IMG/VR virus record: IMGVR_UViG_2711768007_000001
Strand: one strand, 5' to 3'
DNA length: 6,636 nt
Origin: a virus
Lineage: Duplodnaviria; Heunggongvirae; Uroviricota; Caudoviricetes
In this document: positions 1 through 6,636 of the stretch, piece after piece
Layout of the letters: each line of letters starts with the position of its first letter
How positions within the stretch are numbered: the first letter of the stretch is position 1
Program-made: the position numbers and the translations under genes
Notes under the pieces: model-generated
Seen by the model: only the letters and a program-made list of their open reading frames with translations
What the model was told of the DNA's origin: nothing
Databases searched by the model: none

Positions 1-450
1 TCTCACGCGCCAGTTTCAGGGCAAAACTCAGCTCACCGTCGAACACTTTCCCGCAGAAACAGGCTCTGCAGGCCCGGCGTCCTCTGCCTGTTCAGGAGCA
101 TCATTCACCACAAACTCATACATACCGGACAGCCGGTACACCACGTTTTCAGCATGAGAAATTGCCTCTGTGGGCCAGGTGGTAAGCACTTCCTGCTCAA
201 TCTGTTTAACGGCTTCATTCATGGACGGCATCTGCGTCTTCTTCGGATGGTTATGCCACAGGGACATCGCAACCACAAAAGCGCCGGTTCTGATGGCGTC
301 TTCCACAGTAAACTTCCGGTTGCTGTCTGACTCCGCCTGTTCTGCCTGCCGTTTCATCAGGTCGAGATGCTCAATACGCTGCAGGGCTGACAGTTCAGAA
401 AGCGTGACGGTCACACCGTTATGTTCAAATGATTCGGTTTTCAGGAACAT
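1..450 (-). CDS. T: Tail assembly chaperone G-T fusion made by programmed -1 ribosomal frameshift; T part truncated by window edge
   Basis: Slippery heptamer G GGA AAG on the minus strand (plus-strand CTTTCCC at 46..52) lies near the 3' end of G. After a -1 slip the frame stays open to position 1 (..VFDGELSFALKLARE..), consistent with the start of the lambda T segment. Confidence 0.65.
28..450 (-). CDS. G: Tail assembly chaperone G (lambda gpG-like)
   Basis: 140-aa ORF MFLKTESFEHNGVTVTLSELSALQRIEHLDLMKRQAEQ...PVSAGKCSTVS matching lambda gpG. ATG at 450-448 with a GGAGAG SD in the 15-nt spacer after V. Stop TGA at 28-30. Confidence 0.9.
   Translation of the reverse strand: MFLKTESFEHNGVTVTLSELSALQRIEHLDLMKRQAEQAESDSNRKFTVEDAIRTGAFVVAMSLWHNHPKKTQMPSMNEAVKQIEQEVLTTWPTEAISHAENVVYRLSGMYEFVVNDAPEQAEDAGPAEPVSAGKCSTVS
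46..52 (-). other. Programmed -1 frameshift slippery heptamer G_GGA_AAG for G/G-T
   Basis: Exact XXXYYYZ-type heptamer GGGAAAG read directly from the minus strand, in the G zero frame as GCG-GGA-AAG-TGT, eight codons before the G stop. Confidence 0.7.
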
Positions 451-465
451 CGCTGACTCTCCGGA

Positions 466-1206
466 TTAACTGGCGGTGACGTTGATTTCTGCAACCGCAG
501 CAAACTCACCATTACCAGATACGACCGGAATGTTGACCTTGCCTGCAGCAACACCTTTCACGGTGATGGTCATACCACTGACCGACACGGTGGCTTTTGT
601 TTTATCCGCAGACACCGCACGGAAGCTCTTGTCGGTTGCGCCATCCGGCTGGAATGCCACGGTCAGCGTGGTGCTCTGCCCTTTCACTACGGAAGCACTG
701 GCGGGTGTCACCGTCATGCCGGTCGTCGCCGTCACCGTGCTGCGATCTTCTGCCATCGACGGACGTCCCACATTGGTGACCTTCACCGTGCGGGTAATCA
801 CCTCCTTCGCCGTCACCGCCTTACCGATACTGCTGACCCAGCCACGGAACACATCGACCGTGCCGTTCGGGAAGCGGATTTTATAGGCACGGGTATCACC
901 TTCATTAAACCACGCCAGCAGCGCCTGCTGCCCCTGCTCTCCGGGCATCCACGCCAGCGTGAAGCTGGTATCTCCGGCAGATTTCTGCCCCTGCCCGGTC
1001 GCAGTCCAGTCTGCATCTTCATCATCGAGATAGCTGTCGTCATAGGACTCAGCGGTCAGTTCGCCGGGCGTCAGGTCTTTAACTTTTGCCAGACGCGACC
1101 AGTCAACGTCTGAAAGCGGGTTCGCATAAGGGTCACCGCTCCCCTTATAAACCCACAGGGTGGTCCCGGCACCTTTCACCGGCATTGTAGGATTTGGTAC
1201 AGGCAT
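466..1206 (-). CDS. V: Major tail tube protein V (lambda gpV-like) with C-terminal Ig-like domain
   Basis: ATG at 1206-1204 sits immediately beside the N-run. 246-aa [45 protein letters not shown]...[11 protein letters not shown] matching lambda gpV. Stop TAA at 466-468. The ORF-track extension upstream through the N-run is an artefact. Confidence 0.9.
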
Positions 1207-1517
1207 ANNNNNNNNNNNNNNNNNNNNNNNNNNNNNNNNNNNNNNNNNNNNNNNNNNNNNNNNNNNNNNNNNNNNNNNNNNNNNNNNNNNNNNNNNNNNN
1301 NNNNNNNNNNNNNNNNNNNNNNNNNNNNNNNNNNNNNNNNNNNNNNNNNNNNNNNNNNNNNNNNNNNNNNNNNNNNNNNNNNNNNNNNNNNNNNNNNNNN
1401 NNNNNNNNNNNNNNNNNNNNNNNNNNNNNNNNNNNNNNNNNNNNNNNNNNNNNNNNNNNNNNNNNNNNNNNNNNNNNNNNNNNNNNNNNNNNNNNNNNNN
1501 NNNNNNNNNNNNNNNNN

Positions 1518-1678
1518 TCCAGCTCTTCGCCCGTGTATTCAGCGCCGGTGAGATAAACGGCAATTGCCGGAAAATCTTCCTCATCAAAAACAGCGGGGCG
1601 ACCATCAAAAAGCGTCGCCCCGGTGTCATGCTTCTCCAGTGCATCCAGTACGGCTGCACGGAGTTCAGTATGTTTCAT
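1518..1678 (-). CDS. U: Tail terminator protein U (lambda gpU-like); only the 5' portion is visible, the 3' end lies inside N-run 1208..1517
   Basis: ATG at 1678-1676 overlapping the Z stop. The visible 53 aa MKHTELRAAVLDALEKHDTGATLFDGRPAVFDEEDFPAIAVYLTGAEYTGEEL match the lambda gpU N-terminus. If the protein is 131 aa as in lambda, the stop would map near 1283, but this cannot be seen. The ORF-track end at 1145 is an artefact of translating N as X. Confidence 0.8.
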
Positions 1679-2253
1679 CGCTTTATTACCATTCTCAGTT
1701 GATGCTGCAGCGCATAGCCCAGCTCTTTCGGAAGACGTTCACGCCGTATCCGTTCAATATTCTGTTTAAACGCCGTGGTCAGCGGCACCGCCATCGGGAT
1801 TTTCACCACATCAATGGGGTAACGGTTTTTCCCGGCCACACGCTGCATAACATGCCACCGGCCGTTTTTCAGTTGCTGAATAAACGCGCCGGGAATACGA
1901 CGGTTACCCACCACAAGCACGCTGCCGCCACCTTTCAGGGATGAACGCTGCCCCTTTTTATGACGCCTGCGGCGGGACAGGACAACCCGCGCATTACCCA
2001 GCTTGATTACGGGCAAATCCCCCCGGTTAACTTTGATTCTGGCCTGCGGATTTTTGACCGTGGCCCTTTTCAGCCTGGCCCTTTCCTTTACCAGTTTCCG
2101 GCGTACCTTTGTCTCACGGGCAACCTGTGACGCAGACTGCGATATCGCGGATGAAGCAACGCGGTTAATGGCCATTGCGGCGGCACCGGGCACCGCCGTT
2201 TTGCTGATACGGCTGAGGTTTTCAACGGCCTGCTCAAGACCTTTTATGGCCAT
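1675..2253 (-). CDS. Z: Tail completion protein Z (lambda gpZ-like)
   Basis: 192-aa ORF MAIKGLEQAVENLSRISKTAVPGAAAMAINRVASSAISQ...ALQHQLRMVIKR matching lambda gpZ. ATG at 2253-2251 with a GGGGGA SD upstream. Its stop overlaps the U start codon (ATGA). Confidence 0.92.
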   Translation of the reverse strand: MAIKGLEQAVENLSRISKTAVPGAAAMAINRVASSAISQSASQVARETKVRRKLVKERARLKRATVKNPQARIKVNRGDLPVIKLGNARVVLSRRRRHKKGQRSSLKGGGSVLVVGNRRIPGAFIQQLKNGRWHVMQRVAGKNRYPIDVVKIPMAVPLTTAFKQNIERIRRERLPKELGYALQHQLRMVIKR

Positions 2254-2264
2254 ACATCCCCCTT

Positions 2265-2618
2265 TCAGCGGCGACGGTTAACGGCAGGCGGTACGCCCCG
2301 TCCAAGCCAGAGATGACAACTTCCGCCATCATCCGGCGAAACCCGATCTACCCAGAAATTTTCCTCACCGATGGTCAGCGTGTCTCCACGCCGCAGCTGC
2401 CGCACCTCATCAGTCCGGACAAACAGGGACGGGCTGGAGCCTTCAACGCGCACGCCCTGTCCGGCATAGCTGATATTTTCAGGGTCATCAAAAACACCAC
2501 GTATCACCGCACCTGACTGCTCACCGGATGTCATGGTGGCTGACGTTCCCATGTACCCGCGTATCGTTTCATCGGCGCGGGCAATGGCAGCATCGAACAG
2601 GTTATCGAAATCAGCCAC
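2265..2618 (-). CDS. FII: Head-tail connector / head completion protein FII (lambda gpFII-like)
   Basis: 117-aa ORF MADFDNLFDAAIARADETIRGYMGTSATMTSGEQSGAV...GRGVPPAVNRRR matching lambda gpFII. The start codon read from the sequence is GTG (2618-2616), preceded by a GGGAGG SD. Stop TGA at 2265-2267. Confidence 0.9.
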   Translation of the reverse strand: MADFDNLFDAAIARADETIRGYMGTSATMTSGEQSGAVIRGVFDDPENISYAGQGVRVEGSSPSLFVRTDEVRQLRRGDTLTIGEENFWVDRVSPDDGGSCHLWLGRGVPPAVNRRR

Positions 2619-2629
2619 AGCGCCTCCCG

Positions 2630-3028
2630 TTATTGCATTCTGGCCAGGCCGCGCTCTGTCATTTCGGCTGCCACACCGGCAGAGACACGAAACGCCGTTC
2701 CCGGCAGCACAAATGCCACAGGTTTATCCCGCGTGGCGTGAAGTGCATCAGTATGCAGCGTCACCAGTGCCACGACCGTGACCAGTTCAGCCGTATCCTG
2801 AATCACGGTATCCGGCTGCGCTGATACCACCTCATTTTCATGCCCGGTCAGCACATTTTCCCGGCTGAGAGGGGTGTCCTGACCGGCAGTTTCATCCGTG
2901 TCATCAAGCTCTTCTTCCAGCTCTGCCACACGAAGCGCCAGTTCTTCTTTCGTTCCCGTCAAACTGACATCGCGGTTCAATTGCTCACCCAGCTCCTGAA
3001 GACGGGCAATCAGTTCATCTTTCGTCAT
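2630..3028 (-). CDS. FI: Head completion / DNA packaging accessory protein FI (lambda gpFI-like)
   Basis: 132-aa ORF MTKDELIARLQELGEQLNRDVSLTGTKEELALRVAELEEELDDTDETAGQDTP...ERGLARMQ matching lambda gpFI. Start ATG at 3028-3026 preceded by GGAGGAG SD. The ORF-track start 13 codons upstream is rejected because it overlaps the E-FI hairpin and has no SD. Confidence 0.9.
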   Translation of the reverse strand: MTKDELIARLQELGEQLNRDVSLTGTKEELALRVAELEEELDDTDETAGQDTPLSRENVLTGHENEVVSAQPDTVIQDTAELVTVVALVTLHTDALHATRDKPVAFVLPGTAFRVSAGVAAEMTERGLARMQ

Positions 3029-3049
3029 GAACTCCTCCACAGAGAGAAA

Positions 3050-3067
3050 ATGGCCCCGAAGGGCCAT
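3050..3067 (-). other. Intergenic RNA hairpin between E and FI (7-bp stem, UUCG tetraloop on the transcript)
   Basis: Minus-strand sequence ATGGCCC-TTCG-GGGCCAT followed by TTTTCTCTCTG, then the FI SD GGAGGAG and ATG. Perfect 7-bp inverted repeat read from the sequence. Confidence 0.4.
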
Positions 3068-3069
3068 GA

Positions 3070-4095
3070 TTACGCCAGTTGAACGGACACGAACTCATCA
3101 GGATCAGCCAGCAGCATCAGCGGTGCTGACTGAATCATGGTGAACTCACGCGCCGGATCGCCGGTGGTCACCCAGTTTTTCGGGTAACGGGCAGAAGCGT
3201 TAATGCCTTCGCGCTGTGCGTCCGCATCCTGAATGCAGCCATAGGTGCGCAGACCGCGAGCCTGAGTGTTCCCCAGCACCATCGTGTTGTCCGGCAGGAA
3301 GTTCTTTTTGACGCCGTTTTCCACGTACTGTCCGGAATACACGACGATGGCCACATCGCCATACATTCCCTTATAGGACACCGCTTTGCCCAGGTCTTTT
3401 ACCGCTGTCTCCAGCTCGGAATGAGAGCCGCGACGGGTATCCAGCTTCTCCTTGACGGCTTTGAAGGAACGGAACAGCGCCCAGCCTTTCGGGTCAAACA
3501 CGATGATATTCACCACACCGCTGGCGTTCAGCGCGTAGGCTTCGATATCGTCGGTCGGGTCATACGTGGACTTGTCACGCTTGCTCCACTCCGTGACGCC
3601 GGACTGTGTGATGTTGTTCGCCGCACTGCGGCCCATATCCACCTCAACCGGATCGAAGGCTTCACCGGTCATGGTGTATTTGCCCTTGAGCACGGCAGAA
3701 ACTGCCTGCATCTCTTCGACCTGAGCAATGGCCAGCTCTTCGTCACGCATGTTCTGCATGATGATGCGACGGCGGCGGTAAGCCGGGTCCGCCAGATTCT
3801 GCGGATCTTCATCCGGCAGGCGACGCAGGGTCATCTGCGGATTCACCTCATGCTTGGGTTTGACATATCCCGGCGTAAATTCAGAGGTGGAGCCGCCACG
3901 GGAACGGATAACCTCACCGGAAACAATCGGCGAAACGTACAGCGCCATGTTTACCAGTCCCGGAATTTGTGAGAGATAGACTTTCTCCGTGGTGAAGGGA
4001 TAGCTCTCACGGAAAAAGAGACGCAGAAACAGCGGATCAAACTTAAATTTCTGCTCATTTGCCGCCAGCAGCTGGGCGGTTGTGTACATCGACAT
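3070..4095 (-). CDS. E: Major capsid protein (lambda gpE-like, HK97 fold)
   Basis: 341-aa ORF MSMYTTAQLLAANEQKFKFDPLFLRLFFRESYPFTTEKVYLSQIPGLVNMALYVSPIVSGEV...DEFVSVQLA matching lambda gpE. True start ATG at 4095-4093; the ORF-track N-terminal extension runs into the intergenic region and is rejected. Stop TAA at 3070-3072. Confidence 0.95.
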   Translation of the reverse strand: MSMYTTAQLLAANEQKFKFDPLFLRLFFRESYPFTTEKVYLSQIPGLVNMALYVSPIVSGEVIRSRGGSTSEFTPGYVKPKHEVNPQMTLRRLPDEDPQNLADPAYRRRRIIMQNMRDEELAIAQVEEMQAVSAVLKGKYTMTGEAFDPVEVDMGRSAANNITQSGVTEWSKRDKSTYDPTDDIEAYALNASGVVNIIVFDPKGWALFRSFKAVKEKLDTRRGSHSELETAVKDLGKAVSYKGMYGDVAIVVYSGQYVENGVKKNFLPDNTMVLGNTQARGLRTYGCIQDADAQREGINASARYPKNWVTTGDPAREFTMIQSAPLMLLADPDEFVSVQLA

Positions 4096-4150
4096 AAAAA
4101 AATCCCGTAAAAAAAGCCACACAGGCGGCCTTTAGTGATGAAGGGTAAAG

Positions 4151-4483
4151 TTAAACGATGCTGATTGCCGTTCCGGCAAACACGGTCCGTTTTTTCGTCT
4201 CGTCGCTGGCAGCCTCCGGCCAGAGCACATCCTCATAACGGAACGTGCCGGACTTGTAGAACGTCAGTGTGGTGCTGGTCTGGTCAGCAGCAACCGCAAG
4301 AATGCCAACGGCAGCACCGTCGGTGGTGCCATCCCACGCAACCAGCTTACGGGTGGAGGTGTCCAGCATCAGCGGGGTCATTGCAGGCGCTTTCGCACTC
4401 AATCCGCCGGGCGCGGTTGCGGTATGAGCCGGGTCACTATTGCCCAGCGGCTGGTAATGGGTAAAGGTTTCTTTGCTCGTCAT
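4151..4483 (-). CDS. D: Head decoration protein (lambda gpD-like)
   Basis: 110-aa [30 protein letters not shown]...FAGTAISIV matching lambda gpD. Start ATG at 4483-4481 (the ORF-track start two codons upstream is rejected), stop TAA at 4151-4153. 9-nt spacer from the C stop, as in lambda. Confidence 0.93.
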
Positions 4484-4492
4484 AAACATCCC

Positions 4493-4888
4493 TTACACTG
4501 GTGTGTTCAGCAAATCGTTAACGGCATCAGATGCCGGGTTACCTGCAGCCAGCGGTGCCGGTGCCCCCTGCATCAGACGATCCAGCGCAGTGTCACTGCG
4601 CGTCTGTGCACTCTGTGGTGCTGCGGCCAGAATACGGCGGGCCGTTTCCACGGTCATACCGGGGGTTTCGGCCAGCACGCGTGCCTGTTCTTCGCGTCCG
4701 TGAGCCTCCTCACAGTTGAGGATCCCCATAATGCGACTGTTTTCTGCCGCAACCGCTGCGGTGATCTGCGCGTTCACGTCCGGCTGCGCCGCGCTGGCGT
4801 TCTCGCCCTCCGTCGCTTGCACCACGCCAGTAACGTCAGCCTGCGAAGCAGTGGCTGAAACAGTTGTTGATTGAGTCTCTTTGGTCAT
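4493..4888 (-). CDS. Nu3: Capsid scaffolding protein Nu3, nested in-frame in the 3' part of C (internal start)
   Basis: Internal ATG at 4888-4886 (MTKETQSTTVSATASQ...), in frame with C and sharing its stop. It is preceded on the minus strand by a strong Shine-Dalgarno sequence (TCAGGAGGGCGA then ATG). 131 aa, Ala/Gln-rich and low-complexity, as expected for a disordered scaffold. An alternative in-frame ATG at 5098 (MDATRRMF...) has no visible SD. Confidence 0.6.
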   Translation of the reverse strand: MTKETQSTTVSATASQADVTGVVQATEGENASAAQPDVNAQITAAVAAENSRIMGILNCEEAHGREEQARVLAETPGMTVETARRILAAAPQSAQTRSDTALDRLMQGAPAPLAAGNPASDAVNDLLNTPV

Positions 4889-5637
4889 TCGCCCTCCTGA
4901 GAGACGGGATTTACGTGCATCCAGTGCATCACGCATGACGGTGATCGCATCGGTACTGTTAACAAGTTCATCAGCCAGTCCGGCATCAATGGCCTCCTGA
5001 CCGCTGTACACTGCAGCCTCGGTATCCAGCACAGCCTGCACGGACAGGCCGGTATATGCCGACACCTTCTGTGCAAACATCCGGCGGGTTGCATCCATCC
5101 GGGACTGCAATGTTTCCCGGACATCATCCGGTAGATGGCTGTAGGGGTTGCCATCCACCTTATGGCTGCCGCTGTAAATCAGCGTGATTTCCACGCCCTG
5201 TTTCTCCAGTGCAGCGCCGTAATTACTGTGAGCCATCATGACGCCGATGGAGCCTGTCCGGGCGGTCTGCGTGACCAGACGCCGGGAGGCGGCACTGGNN
5301 NNNNNNNNNNNNNNNNNNNNNNNNNNNNNNNNNNNNNNNNNNNNNNNNNNNNNNNNNNNNNNNNNNNNNNNNNNNNNNNNNNNNNNNNNNNNNNNNNNNN
5401 NNNNNNNNNNNNNNNNNNNNNNNNNNNNNNNNNNNNNNNNNNNNNNNNNNNNNNNNNNNNNNNNNNNNNNNNNNNNNNNNNNNNNNNNNNNNNNNNNNNN
5501 NNNNNNNNNNNNNNNNNNNNNNNAAGCTGGCCTGCAAGCGCACAAAAGAAAACCCGCGCATAGGCGGGTTCAAGCATCAGCGGCTCATTAAAAGCCATGC
5601 TGGCAATATGCGGGAGATTACGCAGCTCTGCTGTCAC
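4493..5637 (-). CDS. C: Prohead protease / minor capsid protein (lambda gpC-like, S49/ClpP-type serine protease), interrupted by N-run 5299..5523
   Basis: N-terminal 38 aa (VTAELRNLPHIASMAFNEPLMLEPAYARVFFCALAGQL, GTG start at 5637-5635) are visible upstream of the N-run. C-terminal 267 aa (SAASRRLVTQTARTGSIGVMM...NDLLNTPV) are visible downstream, with stop at 4493-4495. Both match lambda gpC as I recall it. The start overlaps the end of B by 20 nt, as in lambda. The two visible parts are in different frames across the N-run. Confidence 0.8.
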
Positions 5638-6636
5638 TCTTCTCCTCCTCTGTTGATTGTCGCAGCCCGGATTCAAATGCCGCAGCCGCCCAGGCGGGCG
5701 GTTTAAGACCAGCTGCGCGGCGCTCCATCGTTTCACGGACCTGCTGGGCAAAAATTTCCTGATAGTCGTCACCGCGTTTCGCGCACTCTTTCTCGTAGGT
5801 GCTCAGTCCGGCTTCTATCAGCATCACCGCTTCCTGAACTTCTTTCAGACCATCGATGGCCATACGACCGGAGCCTATCCAGTCGCAGTTCCCCCAGGCA
5901 CTGCGGGCTTCCTGAAAGCTGAAGCGCGCTTTTGAAGGTAACGTCACCACGCGGCGAACGATGGCCTCTTCCAGCCAGCACAGAAACATCTGGCTCGCCT
6001 GACGGGATGCGACGAATTTTCGCCGCCCCATAAAGTACGCCCACGACTCGTTCGCACTGGCCCGTGCCGTGGAGTAGCTCATCTGGGCGTAATTCCGGGA
6101 AAGTTGCTCATACGAGACACCCAGCCCGGCAGCGATATACCGCAACAGTGACTGCTCAAACACGGAGTAGCCGTTATCCGTGTCCTGAGCCGTCTGCAGG
6201 TTCAGTGAGTCCCCCGGCATCAGGTGCGGCACTTTTGCGCCTCCCAGACGGACCGGTGCTGCGGCGTAATACGCGGCAATTTCACCAATCCAGCCCGTCA
6301 GCCTTTCCCGCTGCTCCTTACTGTTCGCGCCCAGAATAAAATCCATCGCTGACTGCGTATCCAGCTCACTTTCAATGGTGGCGGCATACATCGCCTTCAC
6401 AATGGCGCTCTGCAGCTGCGTGTTCTGCAGCGTGTCGAGCATCTTCATCTGCTCCATTACGCTGTAAAACACATTTGCACCGCGGGTCTGCCCGTCCTCC
6501 ACGGGTTCAAAAACGTGAATGAACGAGGCGCGCCCGCCGGGTAACTCACGGGGTATCCATGTCCATTTCTGCGGCATCCAGCCAGGATAGCCGTCCTCGC
6601 TGACGTAATATCCCAGCGCCGCACCGCTGTCATTAA
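5618..6636 (-). CDS. B: Portal protein (lambda gpB-like), 5'-truncated by window edge
   Basis: Minus-strand ORF; translation (..NDSGAALGYYVSEDGYPGWMPQKWTWIPRELPGG...EEEKSDSRAA) matches my recollection of the lambda gpB C-terminal part. The frame stays open upstream of the ORF-track Met to position 6636, so the N-terminus lies outside the window. Stop codon at 5618-5620. Confidence 0.9.
   Translation of the reverse strand, partial: NDSGAALGYYVSEDGYPGWMPQKWTWIPRELPGGRASFIHVFEPVEDGQTRGANVFYSVMEQMKMLDTLQNTQLQSAIVKAMYAATIESELDTQSAMDFILGANSKEQRERLTGWIGEIAAYYAAAPVRLGGAKVPHLMPGDSLNLQTAQDTDNGYSVFEQSLLRYIAAGLGVSYEQLSRNYAQMSYSTARASANESWAYFMGRRKFVASRQASQMFLCWLEEAIVRRVVTLPSKARFSFQEARSAWGNCDWIGSGRMAIDGLKEVQEAVMLIEAGLSTYEKECAKRGDDYQEIFAQQVRETMERRAAGLKPPAWAAAAFESGLRQSTEEEKSDSRAA

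Follow-up and report, generated by a model that had tools for sequence, protein, structure and literature searches.

The prohead protease gene C of this lambda-like prophage is broken in frame by a run of 225 Ns, and the break very probably comes from a gap of arbitrary length, left by assembly or by masking, and not from a real feature of the phage. The DNA analysed is a single stretch of 6636 nt, referred to below as the window. An earlier note on the window had left two possibilities for the N-run: either the gap is of unknown size, or it masks a deletion or frameshift that would turn C into a pseudogene. Strong support for the first comes from the 400 nt that relatives carry at this site, from the open reading frame which that sequence restores, and from a second N-run in the window whose length is also discordant. 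The second possibility has gained no support: the window shows no visible indels relative to lambda, and flanks spaced 225 nt apart were not found in three sequence collections. The significance of the finding is for quality control only. A frame break across such an N-run should not be read as evidence for a pseudogene, nor is it a reason to score the head module of this prophage as defective.

Gene content and likeness to lambda

The window is filled by a head and tail module of the lambda type, encoded on the minus strand and consisting of the end of the portal gene B, C with the nested scaffolding gene Nu3, D, E, FI, FII, Z, U, V and G. The Pfam labels of identical loci are consistent with these assignments. 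Eight of the genes (G, V, Z, FII, FI, E, D and Nu3) are intact in the window, and the gene order B-C/Nu3-D-E, with the start of C overlapping the end of B, is present. The C-terminal part of B occupies 5618..6636 on the minus strand (ORF listed at 5618-6577) and extends past the end of the window. The complete gene encodes 533 amino acids in L089, one of the near-identical records described below, and the portal protein carries the Pfam family Phage_portal_2.

The resemblance to lambda extends to the details of gene arrangement. Lambda B (2836-4437) and C (4418-5737) overlap by 20 nt, and the same overlap is found in the window. As in lambda, C lies between B and D and starts with a GTG codon (VTAELRN). 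The Nu3 gene (4493..5098, minus strand) consists of 201 codons in the C frame, beginning with the ATG at 5098-5096, which is C residue 239 (MDATRR); it lies wholly within the visible sequence, and its 201-aa product has the same length as that of lambda nu3 (5132-5737). Overall, the lineage represented by the window shows about 2% base divergence from lambda. In lambda, C is a viral protease of the S49 type and Nu3 is a scaffold, and both are essential for growth and head assembly (PMC10695390; PMC3224144).

At the other end of the module, a GGGAAAG heptamer is found at 46-52 on the minus strand, near the end of G. This is the position of the known -1 programmed frameshift site of lambda G/G-T, and the T frame extends past the start of the window.

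The frame break in gene C

The N-run in C extends exactly from 5299 to 5523, has no strand, and is 225 nt long, a multiple of 3. Upstream of it in the direction of transcription, the minus strand at 5524..5637 encodes the first 38 codons of C, VTAELRNLPHIASMAFNEPLMLEPAYARVFFCALAGQL, which on translation are the same as residues 1-38 of lambda gpC. Downstream of it, the segment at 4493..5298 (minus strand) begins with the last two bases of codon 172 (5298-5297) and continues with codons 173-439 and the stop codon (5296-4493); 261 of these 267 residues match lambda gpC 173-439. The earlier note had described 4493..5298 as 267 codons matching gpC. The match to gpC holds, and the codon count needs a small correction, in that the 806 nt comprise 267 sense codons, the stop codon and 2 nt of the preceding codon.

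The whole gene as it stands in the window, 4493-5637, spans 1145 nt, two more than a multiple of 3, so that the two parts of C lie in different frames on either side of the 225 Ns. The annotated lambda C gene (4418-5737) is 1320 nt long; the window is thus 175 nt short, and exactly 400 nt would be expected under the Ns. The coordinates, the translation and the 1145-nt span bear out two claims of the earlier note, namely that the frame breaks across the N-run and that the run is shorter than colinearity with lambda demands; the shortfall can now be given as 175 nt. In lambda coordinates the run replaces 4532-4931, and the content that it hides is gpC residues 39-171 together with the first base of codon 172. 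In biological terms this C very probably does not differ from that of lambda; residues 39-172 have been replaced in the window by the wrong number of Ns.

The lengths of the two N-runs

A comparison with related loci shows that neither N-run in the window has the length of the sequence it replaces. At the site hidden in C, 144 of 147 relatives carry 400 nt, two carry 399 nt and one carries 396 nt; none carries 225 nt. The estimate in the earlier note, a C protein of about 439 aa requiring roughly 400 nt at the run, thus proved to be exact in these 144 relatives as well as in the three near-identical records. The exceptions are all IMG/VR relatives (L108 and L110 with 399 nt, L133 with 396 nt), and the 399-nt variants may frameshift C or, alternatively, may reflect sequencing errors.

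The second N-run, at 1208..1517 (310 nt, no strand), replaces 241 nt corresponding to lambda 8713-8953. It hides the C-terminal 78 codons of U, the U stop codon and a short spacer before the start codon of V. What remains visible of U, the tail terminator gene, is its first 53 codons plus 2 nt (1518..1678, minus strand, from the ORF list). On the other side of the run lies the ORF of the major tail protein gene V (466..1206, minus strand; 246 codons and stop, with a 246-aa product in identical loci), whose start ATG is 1 nt away from the Ns. Among the 75 relatives that cover the U/V stretch, 74 have 241 nt there and the remaining one has 237 nt; a length of 310 nt is seen in none of them. The second run is therefore 69 nt too long, and the run in C is 175 nt too short. 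Of all the comparisons, this second run, on which the earlier note is silent, proved the most informative control.

The same discrepancies can be seen over longer distances. Positions 1-3000 of the window cover only 2931 nt in close phages, and the 2537 nt from 4100 to 6636 cover 2712 nt in the close phages listed. In the best complete E. coli chromosomes the whole window measures 6742 nt, the sum of 6636 plus 175 minus 69. When the 6101 visible bases are compared with lambda (J02459), they fall into three ungapped blocks, without indels, that end exactly at the edges of the Ns: window 6636-5524 corresponds to lambda 3419-4531, window 5298-1518 to lambda 4932-8712, and window 1207-1 to lambda 8954-10160. 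Because the block edges are the N edges, the two length discrepancies are the only ones in the window and coincide with its only two N-runs. Since the errors are of opposite sign (+69 and -175 nt), the N-runs of this record do not preserve length, and with discordance in both directions their lengths carry no information about indels. Comparing each N-run of a record with near-identical relatives is a cheap test that can be applied generally.

Gap filling from near-identical records

Three independent records are identical to the window at 6100 of its 6101 visible bases: the IMG/VR contig IMGVR_UViG_2667527914_000011 (L089), the complete 4.82-Mb chromosome CP104423.1 (L165) and the draft contig ABXZBY010000174.1 (L168). 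In place of the two runs all three have 241 nt (U/V) and 400 nt (C) of sequence, with no Ns, so that the run lengths of the window (225 versus 400, 310 versus 241) are discordant while its flanks are colinear with near-identical sequences. The single visible difference is at window 3991, where the window has G and the three records have A; this is the third base of codon 35 of E, and the change is silent. The 400-nt fill is the same in all three records. With the fills from these records inserted, the window lengthens to 6742 nt, corresponding to positions 2698-9439 of L089.

The fill restores the C reading frame. Gap-filled C is a single ORF of 439 codons, and 428 of the 438 residues compared are the same as in lambda gpC; C is also called at 439 aa in both L165 and L168. 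Restoration of one ORF of this length was the check proposed in the earlier note, and it has thus been carried out with fill taken from near-identical records. Likewise, gap-filled U is intact at 131 aa. That the source DNA of the window itself contains the 400-nt fill is an extrapolation from these sequences, and it is probably correct.

The prophage to which the window belongs is very widespread: in the assembly collection, 8201 indexed blocks contain its exact Z protein. No 25-mer is unique to the window, each one occurring in some fetched locus, and there were no Ns in any of the fetched loci.

Gap filling also allows the protease domain to be placed. On the gap-filled protein from L089, the Peptidase_S49 domain (PF01343) is found at residues 150-297 (E = 8.2e-44), and so the start of the domain lies under the Ns, with only residues 173-297 visible in the window. 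The S49 catalytic serine reportedly lies near residue 166 of gpC, a position within the hidden stretch. Residues 161-172 of C in L089, NDMNCSAGQLLA, are the same as in lambda. The 248-aa C-terminal fragment of C retains the PF01343 match on its own.

Interpretation of the N-runs

The best explanation for these results is that the 225 Ns are a placeholder, with a length that bears no relation to the sequence replaced. They could be either a scaffold gap of a size estimated from read pairs or a mask inserted at a later stage. Scaffolding programs derive gap sizes from read-pair distances, and errors of tens to hundreds of nucleotides are usual. Both N-runs have the properties of scaffold gaps or masks in draft assemblies, in being pure N with colinear flanks and lengths that are off in both directions (-175 and +69 nt). 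The Ns in C would stand for some 400 nt of ordinary gene C sequence, equivalent to lambda 4532-4931. If they do replace 400 ordinary bases, the frame break arises only from the number of Ns, and the underlying prophage very probably carries C intact, at 439 codons and with Nu3 nested in it.

One alternative is that the Ns are a length-preserving mask laid over a real, out-of-frame deletion of 175 nt in C, so that the prophage would be defective. The arithmetic permits this, with 225 Ns in place of 400 nt and the frames offset, and partial loss of C does occur in lambdoid remnants (L171-L173; see below). Nevertheless, this reading is very improbable. A mask that preserved length in C would also demand a 69-nt insertion lying wholly inside the other N-run, at a site where all but one of the 75 relatives have 241 nt and none has 310. 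The other 6101 nt of the window are free of indels relative to lambda, the remaining genes (from G and V through Z, FII, FI, E and D to Nu3) are intact, and the three records that match all but one of the visible bases hold the full 400 nt.

A 225-nt spacing of the C flanks is, moreover, absent from all 147 relatives and produced no match in three sequence collections. The pattern of the C flanks separated by N{225} gave zero matches in genome_contigs, viral_contigs and metagenome_contigs. Two controls bear on this search: an N in the search pattern matches literal Ns, as tested on the window, and the same flanks separated by N{400} gave at least 120 matches in viral_contigs. Neither the gapped record itself nor a genuine 175-nt deletion variant with these C flanks is present in the three collections. 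Look-ups of the X-containing 350-aa ORF and of the 248-aa ORF that follows the gap, like scans with the plain flank, also brought up no record containing Ns. Were the deletion real, part of the protease domain would be lost, and the window would represent a recently inactivated copy of a very widespread prophage, differing from its intact sisters by the 175-nt deletion and by a 69-nt insertion in U/V.

It is just as improbable that the Ns hide non-colinear content, such as an insertion sequence in C or a mosaic segment of a different length, although IS elements do occur within the head and tail module of some complete E. coli genomes (ISCro1 in H41 and H42, IS621 in H59 and H60) and multicopy IS elements break assemblies: after an IS insertion the contig ends would meet in lambda coordinates, apart from a possible target duplication, but here they are 400 nt apart, so that unique phage sequence is missing and not merely interrupted, and mosaic replacement is seen at the C site in none of the 147 relatives, in all of which the spacing is 400, 399 or 396 nt.

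Possible causes of the gaps

On the reading of the N-runs as assembly or masking gaps, several possible causes were considered. Repeats, divergence, GC content and a fork from a remnant prophage were examined, and none provided a reason for an assembly break at either N-run. Repeat collapse was rejected, since neither hidden stretch proved to be a long exact repeat in common with other lambdoid prophages; other relatives typically show 13-20 mismatches to the 400-nt stretch. Mean divergence is 2.3% in the 241-nt stretch and 4.2% in the 400-nt stretch, both within the 0.9-8% range of visible 200-nt bins. Neither stretch therefore stands out among relatives as conserved or as divergent, and the comparison gave no signal in either direction. 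A coverage dropout driven by GC content is unconvincing, the hidden stretches having 63.5% and 53.9% GC versus 56.9% for the visible sequence; the departures are modest and on opposite sides. A fork created by the deleted remnant of L171-L173 was also rejected, because the homology ends 48 nt inside the hidden stretch, close to the N edge without reaching it, and because the other end of the homology, at window 4176, has no gap.

Other loci among the relatives

The remnant just mentioned is found in L171 (5848-8209) and also in L172 and L173. In these loci a truncated terminase A (389 aa) directly adjoins C, of which the final 248 codons are left. D is called at 150 aa rather than 110, and tail-fibre assembly and invertase genes come after it. 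The remnant is homologous to the window, at 98.5% identity, from position 4176 up to a point 48 nt into the hidden stretch of C; mismatches to C occur at window 5216 and 7 nt into the hidden stretch. L171-L173 is a genuinely deleted lambdoid remnant.

Two further assemblies, GCA_040188945.1 (L166) and GCA_040188935.1 (L167), carry the same prophage as the window, with genes truncated or fragmented by small indels. The portal gene is broken in L166 and the terminase A gene in L167, and both C and the tape-measure gene are broken in the two alike. These look like indel-rich assemblies rather than biology.

Finally, 26 species-representative genomes in genome_contigs carry the C flank (L001-L026), and 19 of them are non-enteric, including Enterococcus, Chromatium, Kitasatospora, Pseudomonas, Shewanella, Paenibacillus and Neobacillus. 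The non-enteric contigs are 99.9-100% identical to lambda J02459. Many have names that show a coverage of about 1, and three are 48.4-48.5 kb long. They look like lambda reagent or spike-in DNA that has contaminated public assemblies.
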